A stretch of 64,000 bases of DNA. It comes from an uncultured Planctomycetaceae bacterium. GTDB lineage: Bacteria > Planctomycetota > Planctomycetia > Planctomycetales > Planctomycetaceae. The notes beneath the pieces are model-generated. The model saw nothing but the letters and a program-made list of their open reading frames with translations. It ran no database searches and had not been told where the DNA came from. The stretch spans positions 320,001-384,000 of the forward strand of contig CAWFGE010000020.1 in assembly GCA_963815195.1 (NCBI GenBank). Direction: 5' to 3'. A program made the position numbers and the translations under genes. Below are positions 3,204-18,452 of this stretch, in pieces. Numbering within the stretch: position 1 is the stretch's first letter; the number at the start of each line of letters is the position of its first letter.

Positions 3204-3254
3204 AACCAGGACACGAAGTCGCCAAAGGCTTCGTGTCCTGGTTTTTGTTTTTTT
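3204..3254 (+). terminator. Intrinsic terminator-like hairpin after clpX
   Basis: 15-bp perfect inverted repeat AACCAGGACACGAAG (3204-3218) / CTTCGTGTCCTGGTT (3229-3243) followed by a T-rich tract. Confidence 0.7.
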
Positions 3255-3271
3255 CTCCATCGGGAAGCAGG

Positions 3272-6200
3272 ATGAGTCTGAAGAATTCGCCGAGCGAATT
3301 GTTGTCGGAATCCGTGCCGGAAGAGGACGCCCTGGCGCTCTTGCGGTCGGTGAATTTTGAGCGGCCGGAAGAGGCGCTCGGGCGGCTGCGGGGAATGCCT
3401 CAAGATGCCGCCGGCTTGAAGGCGCTCGGGGAATCCCTGCCCATGCTGCTGCATGCGCTGTCCGGCGCGGCCACGCCCGACGGCTCGCTGGTCAACTTCG
3501 AGCGGTTCGTGCAATGCGTCGAGGACCGCAACGGCCTGTTCCGATATCTGGCGGCCTATCCGCGGGCGGTCGAGATCTTGATCAAGCTGTTCGTGGGCAG
3601 CCAGTTTTTGACGGAAATCCTCCTGCGGAATCCGGAATATCTCGCCAAGCTCACCAACCACAAACGGCTCGCGGAATTCAAAAGCCGGGATCAGTTTTAC
3701 AGCGAAGCCCAAGCCGCCGCCGCGGAGTTCGCGGACATGCCCGACAAGCTGGACGCCCTCCGCCGCTGCCAGCATTGGGAACTCCTCCGCATCGGAGCCT
3801 GCGACGCGTTTGGGCTGTTGGATTTGAAGTCGGTCACCGTGCAGTTGTCGCTGCTCACCGACAGCATCGTGCAGGCGTGCCTGGCCTTGATGGCCGGCGA
3901 CCTCGAACTTTCGCTCGACGGATTTGTCGTGCTGGCGTTCGGGAAGCTGGGCGGGGAAGAACTCAATTACAGCTCCGACATCGATCTGGTGTTTCTCGCC
4001 GGCAGCGACGCCACCCGCTATTGGCCCTTAGGCCAGAAGCTGATCAAAGCCCTCACCGAAGCGACCGGCGAAGGGTTTTTGTACCGCGTGGACATGAGGC
4101 TTAGGCCGTGGGGCAAATCGGGGGCCCTCGTGAATACCGTCGATTCCCATTTGCAGTACCTGCAAAAGCACGGCCGGCATTGGGAAATGCAAGCCCTCCT
4201 CAAAGCCCGGCCGATCGCGGGGAACCTCGCCGTGGGCCGGGAGTTTCTGCTGCGCGTGCGGCCGTTGATGTTCGGCACGCCGATCGAGGAACTCCGCCAG
4301 AGTGTTCGCGGCATGAAGGACCGCATCGAAGCCGAGCTCAAAAAACAAGGCCGGAAATGGGGCGAGGTCAAAGCCGGCACCGGTTCGATTCGGGACGTGG
4401 AATTCACCACGCAGTTTCTCCAGCTCGCGCACGGCGGAAAGCATCCCGAAGTCCTCAGCTTCAACACCTTGGACGGCCTCGTGCGGCTTGCGGACTTTGG
4501 ATTCATCCAGGCCGATGAATACCGCCAACTGACCAGCGGCTATGTCTTTTTGCGGACGGTCGAGCATGCGTTGCAGCTCATGCACCACAAACAGACGCAT
4601 TCGCTCCCGGAAAGCCAGCGCGAATTGGCCTACCTGGCCCGCAGGCTGGATTATCCCAACGCGAAAGAGTTCTTGCTGCATTACGAACGCCACTGCACCG
4701 CGATCCGCCGGGTTTACGAACGCTACATCGGCGGTGTGGACCGCCCGCCCGAAAGCGAACTCCGGGCCCCGTCCGATCAACTGCTGAGCCACTTGGAGCA
4801 CATGGAGCCTTCGTATGTCGAGACCTTCTCAGAGAACGAAATCGCCCAGCATGCGAAAATGCTGGGTCGGCTTTCCCCGGACAACCTCATCGAAATCCAA
4901 GCCGAGGCGCTGAGCGACAAACTCTGGAAAGTCACGCTCGCGGGCTACGACTTGCCCGGCGACTTGTCCATGATCTGCGGCCTGTTTTTTGTGTATGGGT
5001 TTAATATCGTCGGCGGGAACGTCTTCACCGAAGAATCCTTCGTGGGCTCCGCCCACGCCCGGCGCCGGGCCGCGGGGGAATCAAACCTCAAAGGCGGTTT
5101 GTGAACGTGTTCTCGGTTCGGCCGCCGCTCGATCTCGTGTTGGACAAGGTCTGGCAGCGGTACCACGGCGACCTGGTGGAATTGCTCCACTTGATCGCCC
5201 AAGGCGAGCAGCGCAAAGCCCAGGGCAAGCTGGCCAAACGCATGGCCGTCGGACTGCGGTCGATCCCCAGTCCGCCGCCCGTGCTGTTTCCCGTCGATAT
5301 CGAAATCGACAACGACAGCTCCGAGAATTACACCGTGATGCACATCCGCGGCACGGACACCATCGGCTTTCTGTATGAGTTATCCAACGCCCTCAACCTC
5401 GCGGAAATCGACATCGCCCGCGTCATCATCAGTCTCGGTCGGGGACAGCGTGTTCGATACGCTGTACGTCACCGATCAGAACAAGCTCAAGATCACCGAT
5501 GAGAGCCGGCTCAAAGAACTCCGGGCGGCGGTCGTGCTCATCAAACACTTCACCCATTTGCTGCCCGGCTCTCCCAACCCCGAGACGGCACTACTCCAGT
5601 TTCGCGAGCTTTTGGAAGAGCTGTTCAAGCGCGAAAACTGGTACGAAGAGTTGTCTTCGCTCAACCGCTTCGACGTGCTCGACGCCCTGGCCCGTTTGCT
5701 CGGCGTGAGCACGTTTTTGTGGGAGGATTTTTTGCGGCTGCAGCACGAGAATCTGTTTCCCGTGGTCACCGACACCGAAGCCTTGGCCCACCGCAAACCC
5801 AAAGCCGACCTGGAACGGGAACTCGGCGCGCTTTTGGAAAAGGCCGGGGATTTCGACGCCCGCACCGCCGAGCTCAACGCCTTCAAGGACCGCGAAATGT
5901 TCCGCACCGACATGCGGCACATCATGGGCTACATCGGCGGGTTCGGGGAGTTCTCGGAAGAACTGGCGGACGTCGCTGACGCCGTCGTCGCCGGAGCCAC
6001 GCAGATTTGCAGCGTCGAATTGCAGAAACGCTTCGGTGTGCCGCGGTTGGAGAGCGGCGGCATCGCCCCCTTGTCCATTTGCGCCTTGGGCAAATGCGGC
6101 GGGCGGGAATTGGGATACGCTTCGGACATCGAATTGATGTTCCTTTACGAAGACGCCGGCTGGACCGACGGGGCAGAGTCCATCACCGTGGCGGAGTATT

Positions 6201-6925
6201 ATCAGCGGCTGGTGGAGCTGTTTCGGCAGACCATCAAAGCCCGGCAGGAGGGGATTTTTCAGGTGGACTTAAGGCTCAGACCCTACGGGCGGGCCGGGAG
6301 CCTGGCCGTCTCGCTCGATGCGTTCCAGCAATACTTCGGACCCGACGGAGCCGCCTGGCCTTACGAACGCCAGGCCCTCGTCAAGCTTCGCCCCGTCGCG
6401 GGCGATCGCAACTTCGGCGAACGGATCACCGCGATCCGCGATCAACTCATTTACACCGGCGAACCGTTCGACGTGGCCGCGATGCGCGGCATGCGGGAAA
6501 AGCAAGTCCTGCAACTCGTCAAAGCCGAGACGATCAACGCCAAGCTCAGCCCCGGCGGACTCGTGGACTGCGAATACCTCGTGCAAGGCCTGCAAATTAC
6601 GCACGGCCACCGCCATCCCGGCTTGAGAACCACGAATACTCTCAAAGCCCTCTCCGCGCTCGCGGACTTGGGAATCATTTCCGCCGTCGATTACGCCGAG
6701 CTTCGCGAAGCCTACATTTTTCTGAGGCGGCTGATCGACGGCCTCCGCATGGTCCGCGGGCACGCCAAAGACCTCACCGTCCCCCCGCCCGACAGCGAGG
6801 AGTTCGAATTCCTGGCCCGGAGGCTCGGCTACGGCAACGACGCCGCCCGCCTCAAACGCAACCTCGACCGCTCCACCGAATGCGTCCGCGAACTCAGCCT
6901 CCTCCTGGAACCCGCCGCCCCATAA
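3272..6925 (+). CDS. glnE: Bifunctional glutamine synthetase adenylyltransferase/deadenylase with internal ACT-like region; two apparent frameshifts (~5090, ~5432)
   Basis: Two nucleotidyltransferase modules (GKLGGEELNYSSDIDL...RVDMRLRPWG and GKCGGRELGYASDIEL...VDLRLRPYG) spread over ORFs 3233..5104, 5101..5502 and 5375..6925. Confidence 0.9.
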
Positions 6926-7103
6926 CAGCCGGAAACAGGAATCATAACCCACCCCGCATCTGTTCCCGGGTCGCGGAACGCAGCGGCCGTTCAAAGGGTG
7001 GGCAATACTCTTTACAAGTCGCAACGTTTCGATATATTGTAATAATGTCATCGATCGTCGAGACCCCAATTCGCCATCATCATCGAGCCACTGAGGATCA
7101 ACC

Positions 7104-7661
7104 ATGAAGCAGAATTATCGCCTGGGAGTTTTTGTCGCCTGTTTGGTTGCCGTTGTGATGGCCGCGGCCGCAAAGCCGAAATCCGACGACTCGGAATCGC
7201 CCCGGATCGAAGGGCACGGCCGGGTGACGCCGTTTCCCGATGCCCCGGAGCAACCCCGCGACGGCTCGAAGTTTGTCGTCGATCTCACCGCGGGCGGACC
7301 CCCCAAAGAACTCAGCAAAGGTCTGGACAAGGTCGCCCGGTTTGTGAACATCTACAGCCAGGCGGGAAAAAAGCCGGCCCGCGCCCGAATCAGCGTGGTG
7401 CTCCACGGCGATGCCACGAACTTGGCTTTGAACGATGCCGCTTACGCCGCCGCATTTCAAACCGAGGCCAATCCGAATTTGCCCTTGCTGCGGGAACTCC
7501 AGAAAGCCGGCGTCGAGTTTGTGGTGTGCGGCCAGGCGCTCACGCTCAAGGGTTATCAGCCCAAGCAAGCGGCTGAGGAAGTCCAAGTGGCCGTGTCCGG
7601 CTTGACGGCTCTCGTCAATCGCCAGGAGGACGGCTACGCCTATGTCCCGCTGACGAAGTAG
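7104..7661 (+). CDS. Secreted DsrE/DsrF-like family protein
   Basis: Signal peptide; VVLHG...NPNLPLLRELQKAGVEFVVCGQAL...QEDGYAYV; GAGGA RBS. Confidence 0.8.
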   Translation: MKQNYRLGVFVACLVAVVMAAAAKPKSDDSESPRIEGHGRVTPFPDAPEQPRDGSKFVVDLTAGGPPKELSKGLDKVARFVNIYSQAGKKPARARISVVLHGDATNLALNDAAYAAAFQTEANPNLPLLRELQKAGVEFVVCGQALTLKGYQPKQAAEEVQVAVSGLTALVNRQEDGYAYVPLTK

Positions 7662-7789
7662 CCTCGACCATCGGGACCCGGAGGCGACGGCATCGGCGCT
7701 CACATCACGGGGGGCAGTTTGTCGATTCAGCGGTTTCTGGATTCGACGCCATTCGCGACAAACTGACCCGCAAATTCGGCTTCAATGCA

Positions 7790-8688
7790 CTATTCGATGA
7801 TTTTGTTGATCGAGTATTCCACGATGCCCCGCGCGCCCGCGGCTTTGAGTTTGGGGATAATCGTGCGGACGAAGGACTCCGCCACGATCGCCGTGACATC
7901 CACCCAATCCGGATCGGACAGCGACGACACCGTAGGCGATTGAAGCGCGGGCAGTTGACCCAAAACTTCCTGCAGATTGTCCCGGCGGACGTTCATCATC
8001 AGCCCGACTTTGCCCTCCGCGGCGAGGCAGGATTCCAGCATGAGCGCGATGTTGTCCAGCTTTTCGCGAATCCAGGGGTCTTCGTAGGATTTTCTGTTGG
8101 CGATGAAGCGGGTCGTGCTTTGGATGACCTCGGCCACGATCCGCAGGTTGTTCGCCCGCAGCGAATTTCCGGTCTCGGTGACTTCCACGATCGCATCGGC
8201 CAATCGCGGCGGCTTGACTTCGGTCGCGCCCAGGAAAACTCCACCTTCGCGGTGACGCCGTGCTTTTCGAGGAAGCGCTTCGTAAGGCCCACGGCTTCCG
8301 TGGCGATCCGTTTTCCTTCCAGATCCTTCACGGTCTTCACTGGGGAATCTTCCGGCACGCAGAGCACCCACCGCACCGGGCGGCGGCTGACTTTCGAGAA
8401 CACCAGCTCGCAAATCTCATAAACGTCGGCTTCGGTTTCCAAGACCCAATCGTGCCCCGTGATCCCGGCATCCAAAATGCCTTCCTCGACGTACCGGGCC
8501 ATCTCCTGGGCGCGGATCAACAGGCATTCGATGTCCTCATCGTCGATGTCGGGATAATACGAGCGCGAGGAGAATTTGATCTTGTAACCCGCCCGGCGAA
8601 AAAGCTCCGCGGTCGCGTCCTGCAAGCTTCCCGCAGGAATCCCGAGCTTCAGCCGACGCTTAGTTTCTGTGGTTTCGGTGTCCGACAT
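7790..8688 (-). CDS. hisG: ATP phosphoribosyltransferase (long form); one frameshift at ~8230
   Basis: [10 protein letters not shown]...[10 protein letters not shown]...DAGITG then [29 protein letters not shown] and the C-terminal regulatory domain; adding one G to TGGG restores SWGATEVKP. Confidence 0.92.
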
Positions 8689-8703
8689 TGTGCTTTCTTA
8701 ACC

Positions 8704-8770
8704 AGTAGGGTGGGCACCGCCCACCAATGCAAAGCCAATTTGAAATCTGGTGGGCGGTGCCCACCCTACT
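8704..8770. repeat. REP doublet (REPIN-like), GTAG-type palindromes
   Basis: Perfect 23-bp inverted repeat AGTAGGGTGGGCACCGCCCACCA (8704-8726) / TGGTGGGCGGTGCCCACCCTACT (8748-8770); each arm is internally palindromic and starts with GTAG. Confidence 0.8.
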
Positions 8771-8843
8771 TTTACTTCGTTTCTGTGGTTTCGGTGTCCG
8801 ACATGGTTTCTCTTAGAAATTGCAGGTCCCAGATTCTTCGTTA

Positions 8844-9164
8844 TTAATCTTCGTCGGTATAGGAACCTTCGATGGAGTGCTTCTCGTCCGCGAGATTTTC
8901 AAGAAACTCCTGTCGGATCCTGGCGATAATCCAGCGCTCCGACCAATCATGGCTCTGATGTAAACCGTTGGCGACGTGACGAGCCAAATCAGCGAGCAGA
9001 TGCCCCCAGACCTCGGGTTCCTTTCTTCCATCGTCTTCCGAATCTTGCCGCAGGCCGCCCAACAATATTGAGACATGGAGTTCCCCATGGGCGAGCCAAA
9101 CGCGGATCATCTCCGTGGCATCGTCATCTCCCGCAATCTCCGGTGGCTTATCGAGTTCGTGCAT
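8844..9164 (-). CDS. DUF5076-like protein
   Basis: ATEMIRVWLAHGELHVSI...EPEVWGHLLADLARHVANGL pattern. Confidence 0.7.
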   Translation of the reverse strand: MHELDKPPEIAGDDDATEMIRVWLAHGELHVSILLGGLRQDSEDDGRKEPEVWGHLLADLARHVANGLHQSHDWSERWIIARIRQEFLENLADEKHSIEGSYTDED

Positions 9165-9172
9165 GCTGATCG

Positions 9173-9568
9173 TTACTTCTTGTTATAAACCGCCTTGGGA
9201 TCGAACACGCGTTCGCCGATGACGCTGATTTCCTTCGTCGCGGGGTCGATCTGGCGGAAGAAGCAGCTTTTGTAGCCTTCGTGGCAGGCGGCACCGCCGA
9301 CTTGCTCGACTTGGATCAACACCGTATCGCGGTCGCAGTCGAAATAAATGGCTTTGACGTTTTGGACGTTGCCGCTCTCTTCGCCTTTCCGCCAGAGCTT
9401 GTTTCGGCTGCGGCTATAGTAGCAGACTCTGCCCGTCTTGAGCGTTTCGTTCCAGGCTTCGCGGTTCATATACGCCAGCATCAATACGTCCCCGTTGCCG
9501 GCATCCTGGGCGATCACGGGAATCAGCGGCGACTTCTCAAAATCCGGCTCGTTTGCTTGCTCAGTCAC
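9173..9568 (-). CDS. hisI: Phosphoribosyl-AMP cyclohydrolase
   Basis: LIPVIAQD...LMLAYMN...[18 protein letters not shown]...DCDRD...[10 protein letters not shown]. Confidence 0.95.
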
Positions 9569-9809
9569 AATCAAAATCCTCGGTTGTTTTATCGCTGTTT
9601 CAATGCAATTCTTCGCGTCTTGGTGGTAAAGACGTTTTCGGGCATTCTCACTTCCCCCATTCGGCCCGTTCGCCTAGTATCTGCGCTATTGACGGAACTT
9701 GCAAGCACCCCTCGCCGGGGCTTTTTCCTGTTTTTTGAGATGCAGCCCGGCGAGCGCGGCGAATTTCAATCGAAAACTGAGAACCCGAACCGAAAGGAGT
9801 TTTTCTTCG

Positions 9810-10421
9810 ATGGCCGAACAAAAAGCAACCAACGTCACCTGGCACGAGCACCATGTTTCCAAGGCGGAACGTGAAAAACTCAACGGGCACCCGGGCAGCG
9901 TGCTGTGGTTCACGGGGTTGTCCGGCTGCGGCAAAAGCACCGTCGCCAACACCGTCGACCACATTTTGTACTCCCAAGGCAAACGCAGCTTCGTCCTCGA
10001 CGGCGACAATGTCCGCATGGGCCTGAACAAAAATCTGGGCTTCTCGCCGGAAGACCGGACCGAAAATATCCGCCGCATCGGCGAAGTCGCCAAGCTGTTC
10101 GCGAGTGCGGGGATCATCACGAGCACGGCGTTCATTTCCCCCTACAAAGCCGACCGCGACCTGGTCCGCGAACTTCTTCAGCCGGGCGAGTTCATTGAAA
10201 TCTACGTGAAGGCGTCGCTGGAAACCTGCGAAGCCCGCGATCCCAAGGGCCTTTATAAAAAAGCCCGCGCCGGGGAAATCAAAGGTTTTACGGGCATCGA
10301 CGCCCCCTACGAAGCCCCCGAAAGCCCGGAATTGGTCCTGGACTCCGACAGCAAAGGCATCGACGAACTGGCCCAGGAAGTCGTGGCGTACCTGGAAAGC
10401 CACAAACGGCTTTCGCTGTGA
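9810..10421 (+). CDS. cysC: Adenylyl-sulfate kinase
   Basis: [54 protein letters not shown]. Confidence 0.97.
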
Positions 10422-10436
10422 GTCGTTTCGGCCAAC

Positions 10437-11783
10437 TCACCATTCGATCCGCTCGAACAATCGCATCAACTTGGCTCCGCGACTGGGGTTGATCGCGGCT
10501 TGATAGGCGATCAATCCTTGCAAATGGGCTTGAAAGTGCGCGCGGCCGGAGCGGTTTTGTCTCTTGGGGCCGTGCCGAATGCAGTTGAACAGAATCGCCC
10601 GCAGGCGGTCGTAATCATCCCGGCGGAGGTTGGGCCGCTGATTGAGCACGAGGCCACAGGCTTCCTGCCGAGCGGCTTGGCTCATCACGCGGGTCTTTCG
10701 GTGGCGGATTTCAAACCCTTCATTGAGCACGATGGCGCAAACCGAAATGCGAAAGCGTCCCAGGCTCCGCCGAAAATCGCGGCCGCCGGAAAACACCAGA
10801 TCGTCGGCATATCGCGTGTAGTTCGCGCCGGCTTTGCGGGCCAATCCGCTGAGCCGGCAGTCCAAACGGTAAGCCGCGAGGTTGGCGAGCGTGGGCGAGG
10901 TCGGTGCTCCCTGAGGCAAGTGTGGATTGCCGTATTGTTCCGCCAACCGGCGGTACGGATCGAGATCCAGTGAGTCGTTCAGTTCCTCAACGATTTCGGA
11001 AGGGACCGAGTTCGTGCAAAGTCCGGTCAACAACTCGGCGACCGCTTCGGGATAACCGGTCCAGCGAAACAGCGAGCGAACGCGGGCCCTGTGAATCGAA
11101 GGAAAGAAATGCCGCAGGTCCAAATGCAGCACAACCTGCTGCCCGGCGTGCGGCTCGACATAAGTCAAAACCGAACGGCCGCTGCGAAACGCGTGCGCTG
11201 CTTCGTGGGCGGGGATGCGGCCGACGATTTCTTTGAGGATGCGGCGCTGGATGTTTTTTAAGAGCGGCTTGGGTTCTTCGATCAAGCGGTATCCGGGGCC
11301 GCGTTTGGGCAGCCAGCGGTAACGGTAATGCCTGAGTTTTTCATTTGGCCGAAAGCGCTCGCGCCCGAAGCAATCCGCCAGCCAATCCAGGCGGGAAGGA
11401 CTGACCGACAACCAATCCGCCAAATCGCCGGGCGTGACCAACTCCGGCAGGTTCCAACCGGCGGGAAGACCTCGGCCGGGAATCATCTGCGGCCGAGGAA
11501 CGGCCAAGGTATCGATTTCGAGCCCATCGTTGAGTTCGAGTTCGCAAATTTTCTCCCACAAGATTGGATCGTGATTCAGGAAATCCACAAGCAGTCGCTG
11601 GGGGGGCGGCAAGGCATTGGCATCAAAGCGAGCCAGGATTCTTCGCGCGAAGGGTGCGATCCACCGGGCCCTGGGATCGGGCTGCAATGCTTTCTTGAGC
11701 CGATCGATCAACGCGTCGATCGTCCACGGACCGGACAAAATCACGATTGCCAGCCGGCGACTGAAAACCTTGCGATGCGTCAT
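10437..11783 (-). CDS. Retron-type RNA-directed DNA polymerase (448 aa) with ~110-aa N-terminal extension
   Basis: RT motifs RLIEEPKPLLKNIQRRIL, AHAF, LDLRHFFPSI, LPQGAPTSPTLAN, YTRYADDLVFS, KTRVM...QEACGLVLN; no maturase/endonuclease domain. Confidence 0.92.
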   Translation of the reverse strand: MTHRKVFSRRLAIVILSGPWTIDALIDRLKKALQPDPRARWIAPFARRILARFDANALPPPQRLLVDFLNHDPILWEKICELELNDGLEIDTLAVPRPQMIPGRGLPAGWNLPELVTPGDLADWLSVSPSRLDWLADCFGRERFRPNEKLRHYRYRWLPKRGPGYRLIEEPKPLLKNIQRRILKEIVGRIPAHEAAHAFRSGRSVLTYVEPHAGQQVVLHLDLRHFFPSIHRARVRSLFRWTGYPEAVAELLTGLCTNSVPSEIVEELNDSLDLDPYRRLAEQYGNPHLPQGAPTSPTLANLAAYRLDCRLSGLARKAGANYTRYADDLVFSGGRDFRRSLGRFRISVCAIVLNEGFEIRHRKTRVMSQAARQEACGLVLNQRPNLRRDDYDRLRAILFNCIRHGPKRQNRSGRAHFQAHLQGLIAYQAAINPSRGAKLMRLFERIEW

Positions 11784-11804
11784 TGGGGAATTGGCGAAAA
11801 AAAA

Positions 11805-11969
11805 CGGGCGGCACGTCCCACCTGGTCTGGTCACGCGTGAATTATGCTCCACAACGTGGAGGGGCATTCACGCCACGGAACGGTTCGGTTGGAAACAATC
11901 CCCGGGGTTGCCCCGGAGAGGAAAACTTCACCCGCAGGCAAAATCTTCCCACTTGAGACGTGCCGCCCG
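11805..11969 (-). ncRNA. Predicted retron msr-msd non-coding RNA
   Basis: Terminal inverted repeat 11805-11817 / 11957-11969 (13 bp perfect, 16 bp with G-U), unpaired AG after the 5' arm (G at 11952), stem-loops 11920-11949 and 11900-11918, long hairpin 11835-11873; lies directly 5' of the RT on the same strand. Confidence 0.8.
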
Positions 11970-11975
11970 GTTTTG

Positions 11976-12004
11976 AATCTACGTCCACGATCGCAGCTTG
12001 TCAA
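11976..12004 (-). promoter_or_regulatory. Sigma70-type promoter for the retron ncRNA/RT
   Basis: Minus strand TTGACA (12004-11999), 17-nt spacer, TAGATT (11981-11976); predicted start ~11970 coincides with the 5' arm of the ncRNA. Confidence 0.75.
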
Positions 12005-12286
12005 TTTGCGCGATCGAAAGGTCGATTTGAGTCCTCACGGCCGGCGGGCACGCAAAAAGGCTGACTCTGTGGATTGTGCCACCAAGAAGGATTCTTTGGG
12101 CCAAAGGCCAAATCGCTTTCAGAAAACTCCGCCCCGGCCATGATGGACGCCGAGAATAAGTTATCGTACATTCCATTGCGGGTGAATCGGCGCTCGGCAT
12201 CCGTCCGAAAAGAAAGAAGAGCGGACCGCCGCCGGGCGATTTCCACCCCTCGAAGTCAAACGACACAACTCCCTGAACAGGCCAAT

Positions 12287-14473
12287 ATGCCTCCGGTTCA
12301 TCTTGCGATACTTTGGCATCAGCATCAGCCCTATTATCCCGACGATGTGAGCGGGGAAACCTTGATGCCCTGGGTTCGCCTGCACGGGACCAAAGACTAC
12401 TTCGGCATGGCCCGGCACCTTTTGGAAGTCCCGGAGTTCCGCTGCACGATCAACCTCGTGCCCAGCCTGCTCGTGCAGATTTTGAGATACACCGAACAGG
12501 GCGGCAGCGATCGGCATTTGGATTTGTCCCGCTTGCCCGCCGACAGCTTCACCGCTTCCGACCGGCGGGAACTGTTGTCGGCCGGTTTTATGGCCAACCC
12601 GGAAAGCATGATCCGACCGTATCCGCGGTATCAGGAACTTCTGCTCAAGCGCGGCGTCGATCCCGTGGAAAAAGCCGCCGCCCGCTTTTCCGAAGCGGAC
12701 CTCCGCGATCTTCAGTGCTGGAGCAATCTCACCTGGATTCATGAACTCGCTTTTGAAGACGATCCCGAACTCCGCGAGTTCCGCAAGAAAGGCAAAGGCT
12801 ACAGCGAAAGCGAAAAAGCCTGGCTTCTCGATCGGCAGATGGCGATTCTCCGGCAGGTGATTCCGCTCCACAAGAAGCTCGCGGAATCGGGGCAGGTGGA
12901 ACTCACGACCACGCCGTTTTATCATCCTATCCTGCCGCTCTTGTGGGACAAGACCTCGGCCCGGCAGGCCATGCCCGATTGCCCGCTGCCCCGGTACGTG
13001 GACCGCTACCCGGAAGATGCCCGCCGGCATCTGGGGCGGGGCGCGGCGTTTCACGAAAAGATTTTTGGGAAGCCGCCGCGGGGCCTGTGGCCTTCGGAAG
13101 GTTCAGTCTCACAGGACATCTTGGAGGCCATCACCGAAGTCGGCATCGAATGGATCGCCACCGATGAGGAAATCCTCGCCCACTCCACGGGCGGCCGGGT
13201 CGCGCGGGACGGGCAAGGCCACGCAACGCATCCCGAACTCTTGTATCGGCCCTGGAATGTCGAAGCCGGCACGAAGCCGTTGCAGATCGTGTTTCGCGAT
13301 CACGGTCTGAGCGATTTGATCGGCTTTCATTACCAGCGGAGCGAACCCCATCATGCGGTGCAGGACCTCATCGGCCGCGTGCTCGCCATCGGGCGGGCGG
13401 TCAGCGCCGAAGGCAGCCACCGGCCCGCCTTGGTGCCGATCATTCTGGACGGCGAGAACTGCTGGGAATACTACCCGGACGGCGGCGTGGATTTTCTCCG
13501 TCGGCTTTACCGCGACGCGGTCCGCAACGAACGCCTCCGCCCCGTGACGATCAGCGAGAGCCTCAAGGAGTTTCCCGCGACCGACACGATCGGCCGATTG
13601 TTCGCGGGCAGCTGGATTTCGCACAACTTCGCGATCTGGATCGGCCATCACGAAGACAACACCGCCTGGGATCTCCTGCACATGACCCGCGAGTTTTTGA
13701 AGGAAACCGCCGCCGCGGGCACGGCCGAGCCCGAGGCTTTGGAGAAAGCCCAGAACGAACTCGACATTGCCGAAGGCAGCGATTGGTTCTGGTGGTTCGG
13801 AGACGATCATTCGTCGGCCCAGGATGCGCTGTTCGATGAACTGTTTCGCCGGCATTTGAGCAACGTCTATCGGCTCTTGGGCAGCAATCCGCCCAACGCC
13901 CTTCGCCGGCCGATCACGCGGGCCGATCATCGGTTGCTCCACACGCAGCCAACGGGTTTGTTGCGGGTGAAGGTCACCGGGCGGGCCACGTATTTTGAAT
14001 GGATCAGCGCGGGGAAATACACGAGCGGCAGCGAGCGCGGCACGATGACGCTCGTCACCGAAGGATTGATCAAAGGGCTGCACTTCGGCTTCGACCCGGA
14101 GCGGCTGTTGATCCGGGCCGACACCAACGGCCGCGCGAAAGACGCGTTTCGCTCGGTGGACGAAGTGCGGGTGCGGTTCCAAGAGCCGGCCCAAACGGAG
14201 ATTCGCATCACCGGAGCGAACACCCGCCAGCCGGCCGCCGCACTGTTTCGCCAGCAGAAAGAAGTCAACAAAGCCAAGGTGGAAGCCGCGATCGACACGC
14301 TAGTCGAGATCGGCGTGTCGCGGGCCGATTTGAACGTCGACGTGGGGGACCGGGTTTCGTTCTTCGTGGATTGCCTGAGCAAAAACCGCAGCCTCGACCG
14401 GGCTCCCCAGGAAGGTTTGATCGAACTCACGGTCCCCTCGCCGGATTTTGAGTTGTTCATGTGGCAGGTGTGA
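12287..14473 (+). CDS. Glycoside hydrolase family 57 (amylopullulanase-like)
   Basis: [59 protein letters not shown]. Confidence 0.92.
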
Positions 14474-14654
14474 GCGGAGGAATATATTAGCCGGCACGCG
14501 CTCGCGTCCGGTCCAGCGAACGTCAGAGAAAATGGCAGAAACCGGCGGCGAGCTAGCGCCCTGCGGGGAATTTTTGGGAAAGCCACCAAAACTCAGCCGG
14601 TGAGCGGAGAGCCAAGAGCCGGAAGCAAACAGAAGCAAGAGACGAAGAATAGGT

Positions 14655-14867
14655 TTTTACCGCGAAGCGGTTATATGCCAAAGCCCAGGGTCGCGCAGCG
14701 CACCCTGGGTTGGTGATGTTTCATCAGTTCAATACGCCGAAGGCGTTGCACAATCGGTTTGTATAACGCCTTCGGCATAAGGCAATGTATTGTGCATCCA
14801 TACCCAGGGTGGCGCGGCTGCGCCGCTGACCCTGGGCTTTGAAATGTAACGCCTTCGGCGTAAAGAC
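14655..14867. repeat. Multi-palindrome REP-like/MITE-like element, copy 1
   Basis: Units ACGCCGAAGGCGT and CCCAGGGT...ACCCTGGG arranged as nested inverted repeats; related to 23529-23739 in opposite orientation. Confidence 0.8.
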
Positions 14868-14915
14868 AGAAATACGCTTGACCGGGACGTACATTAAGAC
14901 ATGGCAAATTCACGC

Positions 14916-15917
14916 ATGCCGGATTTACGCAAAGATCCCATTGTGGGCCGATGGGTGATTATCGCGCCCGACCGGGCCAAACGCCCGGAGGACTTCAGCC
15001 AGCAGTTCCGCGAGACCGCCGGCCGCTACGACCCGTTCGCCGAAGGCCACGAAGAGGCGACGCCCCCCGAAATCCTGGCGTACCGCACCCACGGCTCGGA
15101 ACCCAACGGACCCGGCTGGCGGGTCCGCGTCGTGCCCAACAAATTCCCCGCCCTCCAGGTCGAAGGCGAACTGCACAAGCGCGGCGACGGGATTTATGAC
15201 ATGATGAACGGCATCGGGGCGCACGAAGTCATCATCGAATGCCCCCAGACCGAAACCAGTATGGCCCGGTTGTCCGTCGAGAATATCCGCGAAGTGTTTT
15301 GGGCCTACCGCGATCGGCTGGTGGACTTGAAACGCGACCACCGCCTGTTGCACGGGCTGATCTTCAAGAACAAAGGAGCCGCGGCGGGGGCGTCGCTCGC
15401 GCACAGCCATTCCCAGTTGATCGTCACCTCGGTGGTGCCGATCTCGATTCGCGAAGAGATGACGGGCGCGCTCGACTTCTACAACTACCGCGGCCGGTGC
15501 ATTTACGACGACATGATCCACCAGGAACTGCGGACGGCGAAGCGGGTGGTTTTGGAGACGGAGCAGTTCGTCGCCCTGTGCCCGTTCGCCAGCCGGGTGC
15601 CGTTCGAGATGTGGATCCTGCCCAAGCAGCATTCGAGCCATTACGAGAACATCGGCAAACAAAGCCTGGAGGAATTGGGCGGCGTGATGAAAACCGTGCT
15701 CACCAAGTTGGAACTGGCCCTTGATGATCCGCCGTACAACTATATGATTCACACGGCCCCGTTTGATGTCGCCGAGTTGCCGCACTACCATTGGCATATC
15801 GAAATCCTGCCCCGCCTGACCCGCGTGGCGGGGTTCGAATGGGGCAGCGGGTTTTACATCAACCCCGTCACCCCGGAAGACGCCGCCGACTTCCTCCGCG
15901 GCATGGAAGCGGAGTAA
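14916..15917 (+). CDS. galT: Galactose-1-phosphate uridylyltransferase family (GalT / ADP-glucose phosphorylase-like)
   Basis: [68 protein letters not shown]. Confidence 0.9.
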
Positions 15918-15925
15918 ACGAGGCA

Positions 15926-16042
15926 ACCACGAAGGCACGAAGGACAAGGGCCGAAACCCCGAAGGAATTGAAAGATAAAATTCTGCGTCAATTGCGCGCA
16001 TTTTCATGGGGCTTTCTCAGTCTATGTTCGTGCCTTCGTGGT
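15926..16042. repeat. Short intergenic inverted-repeat pair
   Basis: ACCACGAAGGCACGAA (15926-15941) / TTCGTGCCTTCGTGGT (16027-16042), 16 bp perfect, 85 bp apart. Confidence 0.6.
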
Positions 16043-16259
16043 AAAATCTCTTCGGGGAATTCGTGTTCCCGGGACGGAACTTTAGGCGGTTTTTGAAGAT
16101 TGCGGGAAATTTGCGGATCAAATCATTCAGGCGGAAGGCGGTTGGGTTTGGATTTTGACAATTTCTGCCCGCGTTGGGAAAACTCCTGAGCGCTGCTTTC
16201 GCCATGCACCGAAAAAACACTGAGCCTTTATTTCATTCCGGAAGGAAAGGACGCTTTCC

Positions 16260-18452
16260 ATGAGCCAGATCCGTTTGGTTCTCGCCATTCACAATCACCA
16301 GCCCATCGGGAATTTCGAAAGCGTTTGCGAGCAATCCTTCCGCGACAGTTACGGGCCGTTTCTGGACGTGCTCGAAGACTATCCGGAGCTGCCGATTTCG
16401 CTGCACACGTCGGGGAGCCTGTTGGAATGGCTCGCGGTGGCGCATCCGGAATATATCGACCGGGTGCGGATGTTCGTCGAGCGCGGGCAGGTGGAGATTC
16501 TGGGCGGGCCGTTTTACGAGCCGATCTTGTCTTCGATTCCCCGCCGAGACCGCGTGGGGCAGATCGTGGCCTATTCCCGCTATTTGAAGCAAATGTTCGG
16601 AGCGGACGTTCGCGGGATGTGGGTGCCGGAACGCGTTTGGGAGCAGGCGTTTGCCTCCGACATCGCCCGCGCGGGCATCGAATACACAATTCTGGACGAC
16701 TACCACTTCCGCGGTGCGGGTCTCTCGTCCGATCAGCTTTGGAGCTATTACCTGACCGAAGATGAAGGCCGGCTTTTAAAGGTCTTCCCCGGCAGCGAAC
16801 GGCTGCGATATACGATCCCCTTCGAGGACCCGCAGGCGACGATCGACTACCTCCGCGAACTCGCGTACAAACACCCCAACTCGGTGTGCACGTTCGGCGA
16901 TGATGGCGAGAAATTCGGCACGTGGCCCAACACGAAAAAACACGTTTACGAAGATGGCTGGCTGCGGCGGTTTTTTGATGCTCTCCGGGCCAACGGGGAT
17001 TGGCTGAAAGTCGCCACGCTTTCGGAAGCCGTCGATCAAGTCGCTCCCGCGGGCGAGATTTATATTCCCGATTGCAGCTACCGCGAAATGAACGAATGGG
17101 CTTTGCCCACGGGCCGGCAGATCGAACTCAAATCGCTGCAAATCAAGAAGAAAGACGATCCCGATTGGACCGCGATCCGCAGTTTCATCCACGGCGGCTA
17201 CTGGCGGAATTTCCGCGTGAAATATCCGGAAGCCCACGAAATGTACGCCCGGATGCTGGGCATTAGCGAACGGCTGGAGTCGCTGACCAAAAACGGTTCC
17301 ATAACCAATGACGAAGCCGAGCCGCTCAACCAGGCCCGGACGGAACTCTACCGCGCCCAGTGCAATTGTTCGTACTGGCACGGAGCCTTTGGCGGGTTGT
17401 ATTTGCCGCACTTGCGAAACGCCGTGTATCGGCATTTGATCGCCGCCGACACGCTGCTCGAACAAGCGACCGGGCGGAGCGGATCCTGGCTGGAAATCAC
17501 CGCCGACGATTTCGACCGCGATGCCCGCAAGGAAGTCCGGCTGGCGAGCGACCGGTTCGCGGCGTGGCTGGCTCCCGCGCGGGGCGGACATCTCTACGAA
17601 CTCGATGTGCGATCCGCCCGGCACAATCTGCTCGCGACATTAAACCGCCGGCCCGAGCCTTATCATGAAGTCGTCCTCAAAGCCGGCCAGCAAAGGGACA
17701 ACGGCGAGCACCATGGGGATGGCGTCGCGAGCATTCACGACATGGTCCACTTCAAACAGCCCGACCTCGATAAGAAAATCGCCTACGACAACTGGCCGCG
17801 GAAGAGTCTGATCGATCACTTCCTGCAGCCGGGGTTGAGCCTCGAAGAGTTTCTGCAAAACCGCGGCGACGTTGGCGATTTTGTCCACGGAGTCTATGAA
17901 GCCACGCTCCGCCGCTCCGACAACCGGGTGGAAGCGGTGTTGGCCCGGCAAGGGAATGTGGGACCGTATTCGGTCAAGCTTTCCAAAACCGTGGCCTTGG
18001 GTGCCGAGAACCCCGGCCGCTTGGAAGTCGTGTATCGCCTTGAAAACCTGCCGCTGGATGTGCCGATCCACTTTGCGGTCGAGTTCAACTTCGCCGGCCT
18101 GCCCGCGGGCGCTCCGGATCGATATTATTACGATGCGAACCGCCAGCAACTCGGCCAGTTGGAGACGATTCAGTCTCTGCCCGAATCGCAAACGATCGGT
18201 TTGATGGATGAATGGCTCGGCATCGATGCGTCGCTCGATCTTTCACAGCCGGCGGAGATCTGGACGTTTCCGATCCAGACCATCAGCCAATCCGAAGGCG
18301 GGTTCGAGTTGGTGCATCAAAGCTCGGCGGTGGTTCCACATTGGCAGTTCACGGCCGACCCGTCCGGCCGCTGGGGCGTGCGGATTTCGCTGAATGTCGA
18401 CACCTCCAAAGCCCAGATTCGCCAACTCCACGAAGCCGCCGTGATGAGCTGA
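16260..18452 (+). CDS. GH57 alpha-amylase / 4-alpha-glucanotransferase (DUF1925/DUF1926-type)
   Basis: HNHQPIGNF, GGPFYEPIL, GMWVPERVWE, DDGEKFGTWP, QCNCSYWHGAFGGLYLPHLR, SQSEGGFE. Confidence 0.92.
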   Translation: MSQIRLVLAIHNHQPIGNFESVCEQSFRDSYGPFLDVLEDYPELPISLHTSGSLLEWLAVAHPEYIDRVRMFVERGQVEILGGPFYEPILSSIPRRDRVGQIVAYSRYLKQMFGADVRGMWVPERVWEQAFASDIARAGIEYTILDDYHFRGAGLSSDQLWSYYLTEDEGRLLKVFPGSERLRYTIPFEDPQATIDYLRELAYKHPNSVCTFGDDGEKFGTWPNTKKHVYEDGWLRRFFDALRANGDWLKVATLSEAVDQVAPAGEIYIPDCSYREMNEWALPTGRQIELKSLQIKKKDDPDWTAIRSFIHGGYWRNFRVKYPEAHEMYARMLGISERLESLTKNGSITNDEAEPLNQARTELYRAQCNCSYWHGAFGGLYLPHLRNAVYRHLIAADTLLEQATGRSGSWLEITADDFDRDARKEVRLASDRFAAWLAPARGGHLYELDVRSARHNLLATLNRRPEPYHEVVLKAGQQRDNGEHHGDGVASIHDMVHFKQPDLDKKIAYDNWPRKSLIDHFLQPGLSLEEFLQNRGDVGDFVHGVYEATLRRSDNRVEAVLARQGNVGPYSVKLSKTVALGAENPGRLEVVYRLENLPLDVPIHFAVEFNFAGLPAGAPDRYYYDANRQQLGQLETIQSLPESQTIGLMDEWLGIDASLDLSQPAEIWTFPIQTISQSEGGFELVHQSSAVVPHWQFTADPSGRWGVRISLNVDTSKAQIRQLHEAAVMS

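Follow-up and report, generated by a model that had tools for sequence, protein, structure and literature searches.

Stand-alone (msr-msd)-reverse transcriptase (RT) cassettes are described in retron clade 11 and in a branch of clade 2 by Mestre et al. (2020, PMC7736814), who state that such cassettes may use effectors in trans or serve another function. In the SPIRE table, clade11-A and clade11-B are paired with the OutgroupA and OutgroupB RNA models, carry no accessory domain and are given low priority (PMC13712802). Clade 11 is called essentially actinobacterial in PMC7736814, unlike the planctomycetal locus described here, and SPIRE already records members from Planctomycetota and Acidobacteriota (PMC13712802). 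Clade-11 retrons were also built for the Khan census, in which the clades outside 2, 9, 10, 3 and 4 gave 'intermediate' multicopy single-stranded DNA (msDNA) production (PMC10849725). We analysed a 64,000-nt stretch of DNA (the window) from an uncultured Planctomycetaceae bacterium (GCA_963815195.1, contig CAWFGE010000020.1, positions 320,001 to 384,000), which contains an RT gene preceded by a retron noncoding RNA (ncRNA). The locus is very probably a stand-alone retron of the clade 11 type, with which it shares an ncRNA directly upstream of the RT and the lack of an associated protein. The locus is ordinary for its lineage, and what it adds is the co-occurrence of an N-terminal domain (NTD) of the RT with an unpaired bubble in the msd stem. 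We found no discussion of either feature in the accessible parts of PMC7736814 or PMC13712802, and a literature search of partial coverage returned no paper on them; the supplementary RNA figures of Mestre et al. may show the loop. The question at stake is the role of effector-less retrons, which the conserved bubble and its co-occurrence with the NTD make testable. A preliminary description of this DNA had proposed a two-component retron: the absence of a consistent effector and the purifying selection reported below agree with it, but the arrangement had already been catalogued as clade 11 (PMC7736814).

The RT and its relatives

Retron RTs top both fold searches with the RT model, and the RT of Retron-Eco1 (Ec86; 7v9x), the best solved structure, superposes on the RT core with a Z score of 28.6 and a root-mean-square deviation of 2.5 over 303 aligned residues. 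The YADD motif (residues 325–328) is kept in 116 of 117 aligned homologues. Region X reads HEAAH (residues 193–197), which retains the His of the canonical NAxxH but has a second His in place of the Asn; the six most frequent variants in the family all start with H (97/117), and Asn substitutions in retron region X are already known (PMC6868368). Region Y is ACG (residues 375–377) in place of the canonical VTG, and the family has AAG (66), VAG (24) or VTG (11 of the 117), with G377 invariant. The RT thumb forms the end of the protein (residue 448), and no C-terminal TOPRIM, DUF3800, protease or TIR domain follows it, which sets the protein apart from the fused-effector types I-C, VII-A1, XI and XII, whose C-terminal effector domains are absent here.

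The PADLOC model RT_outgroup matches the protein end to end, NTD included (467 bits; residues 7–448, model positions 7–407 of 407), and leads the named types by 150 bits, with RT_XIII at 317 bits. Because the SPIRE table ties 'Outgroup' to clade 11, this match is read as clade 11. Two points count against the placement: the untyped PADLOC model RT_other, whose make-up is not given, scores higher still (493 bits), and the assignment is one by profile, not by a tree with the Mestre reference sequences. In an IQ-TREE phylogeny built from 50 of 122 RT cores, in which the bootstrap is not fully settled, the NTD-type RTs are supported at 95/87, an NTD-less sister lineage at 100/96 and the type XIII-like RTs at 100/100. 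An actinobacterial RT from a Tsukamurella plasmid record falls in the same tree clade as this RT. Six matches to the RT come from phage records, all distant and partial, and none of the six covers the NTD.

By score, the nearest outside lineage is type XIII (clade 10; Mx162, Mx65, Sa163, Ne144), whose RTs also have N-terminal extensions of unknown function (PMC6868368). However, type XIII forms the separate, fully supported branch, and the RT scores too low against it to belong to clade 10; the extension of the one type XIII sequence tested does not align to this NTD, and type XIII loci fail to match the ncRNA covariance model. Type XIII retrons are linked to SWIM/DEDE protein and ARM-repeat genes, whereas the neighbours here are cysC and a GH57 hydrolase gene. 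Retron-Eco5 (Ec107), from the clade 2 branch, is likewise a stand-alone, intergenic cassette without mobility genes (PMC7736814, PMC6868368), but its RT is of another clade (191 bits, partial match) and shows no such NTD in the matched region. The RT of Retron-Eco1 is different in having 314 aa with essentially nothing matching residues 1–95, and this retron has a separate NDT effector.

Two type XIII-like RTs are encoded elsewhere in the genome. The first (L044, G000:C13:1180387-1181349; 509 bits) has a short hydrophobic N-terminal helix, and in a mechanical list of open reading frames (ORFs) its neighbours look housekeeping, with no obvious SWIM/ARM gene adjoining. The second (L045, G000:C23:234510-235454) is apparently broken at its N-terminus and lies near insertion-sequence genes, with a weak SWIM match about 10 kb away (C23:245337).

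The ncRNA and its promoter

The ncRNA called in the preliminary description is well supported. Besides the 26-nt inverted repeat at its ends, it folds with a z score of −5.6 (0 of 200 shuffles as stable), and covariation is found in 27 of 34 pairs across 46 homologues (0 of 500 shuffles as high). A covariance-model search finds it as a single copy in the genome, and Rfam holds no family for it. Among homologue sources the model recovers the ncRNA in 95 of 99, of which 46 are its own training sequences and from which five loci without upstream DNA are excluded. The distance between the ncRNA end and the start of the RT is −5 to +30 nt in 74 of 80 loci. The second msr helix is paired in 99.7% of alignment cells, and a YMAG word is present in the 5′ region of 78 of 95 ncRNAs. 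When the msd hairpin is folded as DNA its z score is −1.5, which is not significant alone. The promoter matches at 10 of 12 positions; one site against 0.6 expected is likewise not significant alone, and both hexamers are retained in a congener (G001).

The N-terminal domain

AlphaFold predicts five helices over residues 2–86, both for the NTD alone (predicted local distance difference test score, pLDDT, 82.5) and in the full-length protein, whose model (predicted template modelling score 0.90, pLDDT 93.6) is consistent with a docked domain. Solved retron RTs superpose only from about residue 95–116 onward, which bears out the extension and the N-terminal sequence given for it in the preliminary description. 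Fold searches with the NTD return no match (best E 3.5 for Foldseek against the PDB and 1.5 against BFVD; best VIA-align Z 5.4), and no publication was found under the name of the top VIA-align entry. From the ESM Atlas came a single unnamed cluster, whose value of 0.78 is under the useful range; Pfam and NCBIfam hold no family for the query NTD, and the best Pfam count over 68 NTD members is 2. The missing fold match does not make the NTD a new fold.

In the sequences compared, the NTD is a regular, clade-wide part of the RT, much as the preliminary description had allowed when it named an ordinary structural part of the clade as the alternative to an effector. A homologue search over 8000 candidates gave 4314 matches; of the 120 listed, 117 span at least 95% of the query. 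In 85 of 102 loci the RT ORF is matched by the NTD profile, a share that is biased upward because the loci were ranked by whole-protein similarity; the loci left over are contig ends, frameshifts, low-scoring cases, the sister lineage and type XIII. NTD segments alone match RT_outgroup in 13 of 68 cases and RT_other in 20 of 68, with no match for the query's own segment. A search against 50% representatives returned 936 matches to the NTD, of which the best 150 were examined. Where the sequence behind the NTD was followed (159 matches), 107 run into the RT linker or core, 31 stop no more than 25 aa further on, and the tails of the remaining 21 differ and are by eye mostly frameshifted RT genes. 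Nine matches looked like stand-alone NTD proteins and were read as RT fragments. The NTD profile fails to align to the N-terminus of the Tsukamurella RT, so NTD homology in the divergent actinobacterial members stays unshown. At two loci (L033 and L114) the frame of the NTD is not that of the RT core, which may reflect real frameshifts or assembly errors.

The 68 members have a mean net charge of +7.2, and their columns conserved at 90% or more are L11, A12, G18, R28 and W41. A hydrophobic window of at least 1.6 occurs in only one of the 68, with no transmembrane stretch, and the comparison reveals no conserved catalytic motif. The NTD is probably a structural or nucleic-acid-binding part of the RT.

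Co-occurrence of the NTD with the msd bubble

The msd stem contains a 4x4-nt unpaired bubble in 45 of 46 aligned RNAs of NTD-type retrons. Opposed bubble bases are Watson-Crick in 11 of 184 positions, compared with 22% by chance, and the flanking pairs are kept in 34–46 of the 46 RNAs and covary. At the level of the alignment, the bubble is conserved in shape and not in sequence. Over the larger set of NTD-type ncRNAs it is exactly 4x4 in 62 of 97 and at least 3x3 in 80 of 97. In contrast, the ncRNAs of the NTD-less sister lineage, which match the covariance model weakly, have an exact 4x4 bubble in 0 of 15 and one of at least 3x3 in 3 of 15, and their msd stem is nearly perfect. The sister lineage, seen only in the family of this genome (f1), offers a natural comparison without NTD and without the 4x4 bubble. 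In place of the NTD its RTs have a short hydrophobic or amphipathic helix (longer and hydrophobic in L161), followed by a low-complexity linker. This contrast suggests that the NTD and the bubble work together, with presenting and caging roles undistinguished by the co-occurrence. A FastTree phylogeny suggested that the sister lineage is nested within the NTD clade, but IQ-TREE (50 of 122 cores) did not uphold this.

We favour a mechanism in which the NTD holds the bubble-bearing msDNA as a bait, and give it, as a whole, a probability of about 0.5. One promoter would drive a transcript of the ncRNA followed by the RT, as the sequence suggests. By homology, the RT would copy the msd after priming from the G at the a1/a2 stem end, and the product would be a branched msDNA of roughly 60–80 nt, whose hairpin is expected to bear the fixed 4x4-nt bubble seen at the sequence level. 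The basic five-helix NTD may serve as a built-in nucleic-acid-binding arm that holds or presents the bubble stem. In the weakest step, the RT-msDNA particle, having no toxin of its own, would most likely serve as a standing bait, binding or titrating a structure-specific DNA-processing protein whose gene lies elsewhere, either of the host (repair, recombination) or of an invader. A precedent is found in mismatched msDNA stems, which titrate MutS when overexpressed (PMC6868368).

Several points weigh against this mechanism. The titration of MutS needed about 100-fold overexpression (PMC6868368), and no bait target emerged from the analysis. Expression, msDNA synthesis, the NTD-msDNA contact and the bait role are all predicted. 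The link between NTD and bubble is one phylogenetic contrast, in which the bubble was scored by our own rule with a model trained on NTD-type RNAs. The charge of the NTD is weak evidence because the RT core is equally basic in places, and in most close pairs the NTD changes more quickly than the core, which is also compatible with a conflict role. Finally, an effector caged by msDNA would produce the same NTD-bubble link.

Such an effector in cis is among the readings set out in the preliminary description, with the extension as its only in-cis candidate; the NTD would be a cationic amphipathic helical bundle, caged by the msDNA bubble and freed once a phage enzyme binds or cuts the bubble, for example to damage membranes. 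If true, clade-11 retrons would be one-gene toxin-antitoxin systems, which would explain a large orphan lineage, and the NTD would be an N-terminally fused, non-enzymatic retron effector, defining a new retron type if toxic. The NTD and the bubble do co-occur as an effector and its cage would. Helices 2–4 are amphipathic (moments 0.60–0.68) and carry conserved Trp and Arg residues, saposin-like proteins and a circular bacteriocin are among the weak fold matches (Z 3.4–4.0), and the sister lineage has its hydrophobic or amphipathic helix at the same place. Fused effectors are known in types I-C, VII-A1, XI and XII, but all of those in Table 1 of PMC7736814 are C-terminal. However, the NTD has neither a conserved catalytic set nor a transmembrane segment, a Z under 8 is background for helical bundles, and the NTD was found on no other protein among the matches examined. 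The loci also avoid defence genes, and the NTD and core of L033 and L114 lie in different frames, though these may be assembly errors. Nothing positively supports an effector role for an extension that is a regular part of the clade, and we retain this reading as unlikely.

The sister lineage looks like a domesticated, vertically inherited retron. A frequent arrangement at its loci is a divergent M50 protease gene, then ncRNA-RT, an unnamed membrane gene, mutL and a shikimate-pathway gene. At 6 of 18 loci the sister RT is found upstream of mutL, which is suggestive, but old synteny explains it. The membrane protein of about 260 aa (L163:6020-6832), for which there is no Pfam family, stands behind the sister RT in 8 of 18 loci. 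Of the family f1 genomes 26 of 36 have it, often upstream of mutL, against 0 of 24 other genomes of the class searched. It accompanies the sister RT in about 19 of 20 genomes, and is present also without it. In five genomes (G009, G011, G016, G023 and G028) the gene stays by mutL or the M50 protease gene with no sister RT found. As an effector of the retron described here it was rejected, since it was found in 0 of 4 genomes of the genus and keeps its place in genomes where no sister RT was found.

Search for a partner gene

Across about 100 related loci there is no recurring partner and almost no defence neighbour. When the 8410 flanking ORFs of 102 loci were compared all against all, the two largest clusters (24 loci each) are translations of the ncRNA; the next among those listed are kinases (8 loci) and ABC ATPases (7 loci), at varying distance and orientation. 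Where there is room, the first downstream ORF is co-oriented in 36 of 66 loci and convergent in 30 (mechanical ORF calls). The 108 same-strand flanking ORFs give two PADLOC matches, one being part of a frameshifted RT and the other a mad2-like gene, so that 1 of 107 non-RT flanking ORFs matches; none of the 108 is a SWIM/DEDE or ARM-repeat gene. Of 52 downstream ORFs, 19 match Pfam in 17 different families, mostly housekeeping, with one PIN domain. The case in which homologues consistently carry a neighbouring effector, which the preliminary description had set out, is not what these loci display.

Type VI retrons have a small toxin ORF in or behind the ncRNA, plus a helix-turn-helix gene. Recurring short translations at the present loci are hairpin-derived only, in several frames and on both strands. 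A closed ATG ORF of at least 20 aa occurs in 44 of 88 ncRNA windows, and the clustering covered ORFs of 30 aa or more.

An ordinary toxin-antitoxin retron with its dedicated effector gene at another place in the genome is a possibility left open by Mestre et al. (PMC7736814), and heavy operon reshuffling in the genus could have separated the partner. The two type XIII-like RTs and four weak SWIM matches in the genome might be taken in its favour, but the SWIM model also matches in 13 of 14 control genomes. An ancestral partner should persist adjacent to the RT in some of the loci, yet about 100 loci from several lineages share none. Most hosts of orphan retrons are without homologues of known effectors (PMC7736814), and the sole candidate, the sister-lineage membrane gene, was not found in the four genomes of the genus and stays by mutL or the M50 protease gene where no sister RT was found. 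We regard an effector in trans as rather unlikely.

Inheritance and selection

In the congener G001 the cassette lies at another site, with neither cysC nor the GH57 gene beside it, and the DNA common to both genomes is exactly 10437-12007, from the RT stop to the −35 box, that is, promoter, ncRNA and RT. Operons in the genus are generally reshuffled, so the different site need not mean mobility. Genome-wide, many short intergenic palindromic repeats are common to the congeners, and synteny breaks at most operon ends. The synonymous divergence (dS) to G001 is 0.65 for the RT, 0.51 for cysC and 0.49 for the GH57 gene, and the ratio of nonsynonymous to synonymous divergence (dN/dS) is 0.19 for the whole RT and 0.21 for the NTD, which indicates purifying selection. 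The RT groups with RTs of its own family (96/87, IQ-TREE). Its presence is patchy: the NTD profile is found in 11 of 401 genomes of the phylum, and an NTD-type RT in 14 of 61 relatives (this genome included) and in one of three congeners. These data fit long vertical retention with many losses, not decay. Recent horizontal insertion was considered and rejected, as dS and local GC content give no sign of foreign origin. An empty site could not be shown because the congeners break synteny at both neighbours, and the DNA sequencing contigs contain no joint that skips the retron. Among the sequencing runs listed, none of RNA carries it.

The patchy presence and the arbitrary neighbour genes could also be those of a near-neutral or selfish passenger, in which RT and RNA sustain only each other and the host gains nothing. 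There are, however, no mobility genes or other signs of mobility; an RT dS like that of cysC and the GH57 gene, together with the grouping by family, points to long vertical retention under purifying selection, for which a host benefit is needed. The conserved unpaired bubble, moreover, has no obvious need in reverse transcription. A mere passenger is accordingly improbable, and the bait mechanism remains our preferred reading. A remnant in decay after the recent loss of a neighbouring effector is the least plausible of the alternatives. Nothing specific speaks for it, although one of the type XIII-like RTs of the genome (L045) does seem broken at its N-terminus beside insertion-sequence genes. 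This reading is largely refuted: frame, motifs, promoter and RNA are intact, the dN/dS of the RT is low, the homologues are equally without a partner, and the unit common to G001 is exactly promoter, ncRNA and RT.

Genomic surroundings

The features of the locus are collected in Table 1. The surroundings given in the preliminary description proved accurate. The gap between the RT stop and the stop of the convergent cysC measures exactly 15 nt, and the divergent GH57 gene starts upstream of the promoter. No toxin, nuclease, integrase or transposase gene was seen when five proteins (the RT and the products of cysC, the GH57 gene, hisI and the DUF5076 gene) were scanned against families and the rest of the ORF list for 4000-18000 was read by eye. 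No co-oriented partner gene is present at the locus, where promoter and ncRNA lie between the RT and GH57 genes. A scan of the contigs of the genome returned one locus. To the left of cysC, the next genes are hisI and a DUF5076 gene.

Table 1. Coordinates of the retron, its adjoining genes and the sister-lineage loci (window positions unless locus names are given).
Feature	Position	Strand	Remarks
RT gene	10437-11783	minus	intact ORF, 448 aa
NTD of RT, residues 1-86	11526-11783	minus	five predicted helices; net charge +7 over first 80 residues
Linker and retron RT core, residues 87-448	10437-11525	minus	RVT_1 E 5e-19; fold and motifs
Sigma70-type promoter, TTGACA-17 nt-TAGATT	11976-12004	minus	directly upstream of ncRNA
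Retron ncRNA (msr-msd), ~180 nt	11796-11978	minus	covariance-model match 127.6 bits; sequence itself in training set
5′ arm of a1/a2 inverted repeat	11949-11974	minus	26 nt, 85% complementary
3′ arm of a1/a2 inverted repeat	11800-11825	minus	partner of 5′ arm
Candidate branching G	11952	minus	proposed from position
Two msr hairpins	11899-11948	minus	second is GGGG-loop-CCCC, most conserved part of ncRNA family
msd hairpin	11835-11873	minus	8-bp lower stem, 4x4-nt unpaired bubble, 6-bp upper stem, 3-nt loop
msd bubble	11843-11846 opposite 11862-11865	minus	unpaired 4x4 nt
cysC (adenylylsulfate kinase / APS kinase)	9810-10421	plus	E 5e-68; convergent neighbour, outside the system
GH57 glycoside hydrolase gene	12287-14473	plus	E 3e-55; divergent neighbour, outside the system
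Sister-lineage loci	L014, L017-L028, L046, L048-L051, L161-L173		family f1 genomes

Two genes at lower positions of the window may be disrupted. The gene at 3233-6925, presumably glutamine synthetase adenylyltransferase-like, is spread over the consecutive frames 3233-5104, 5101-5502 and 5375-6925 and is possibly frameshifted. The gene at 7790-8688, which we take to be hisG-like (ATP phosphoribosyltransferase), is broken over two overlapping frames (7999-8688 and 7790-8413), which suggests a frameshift or an assembly error. Its 5′ end is directly duplicated (about 8667-8690 and 8785-8807, within the region 8667-8807), and the two copies flank a palindromic repeat near 8706-8770.

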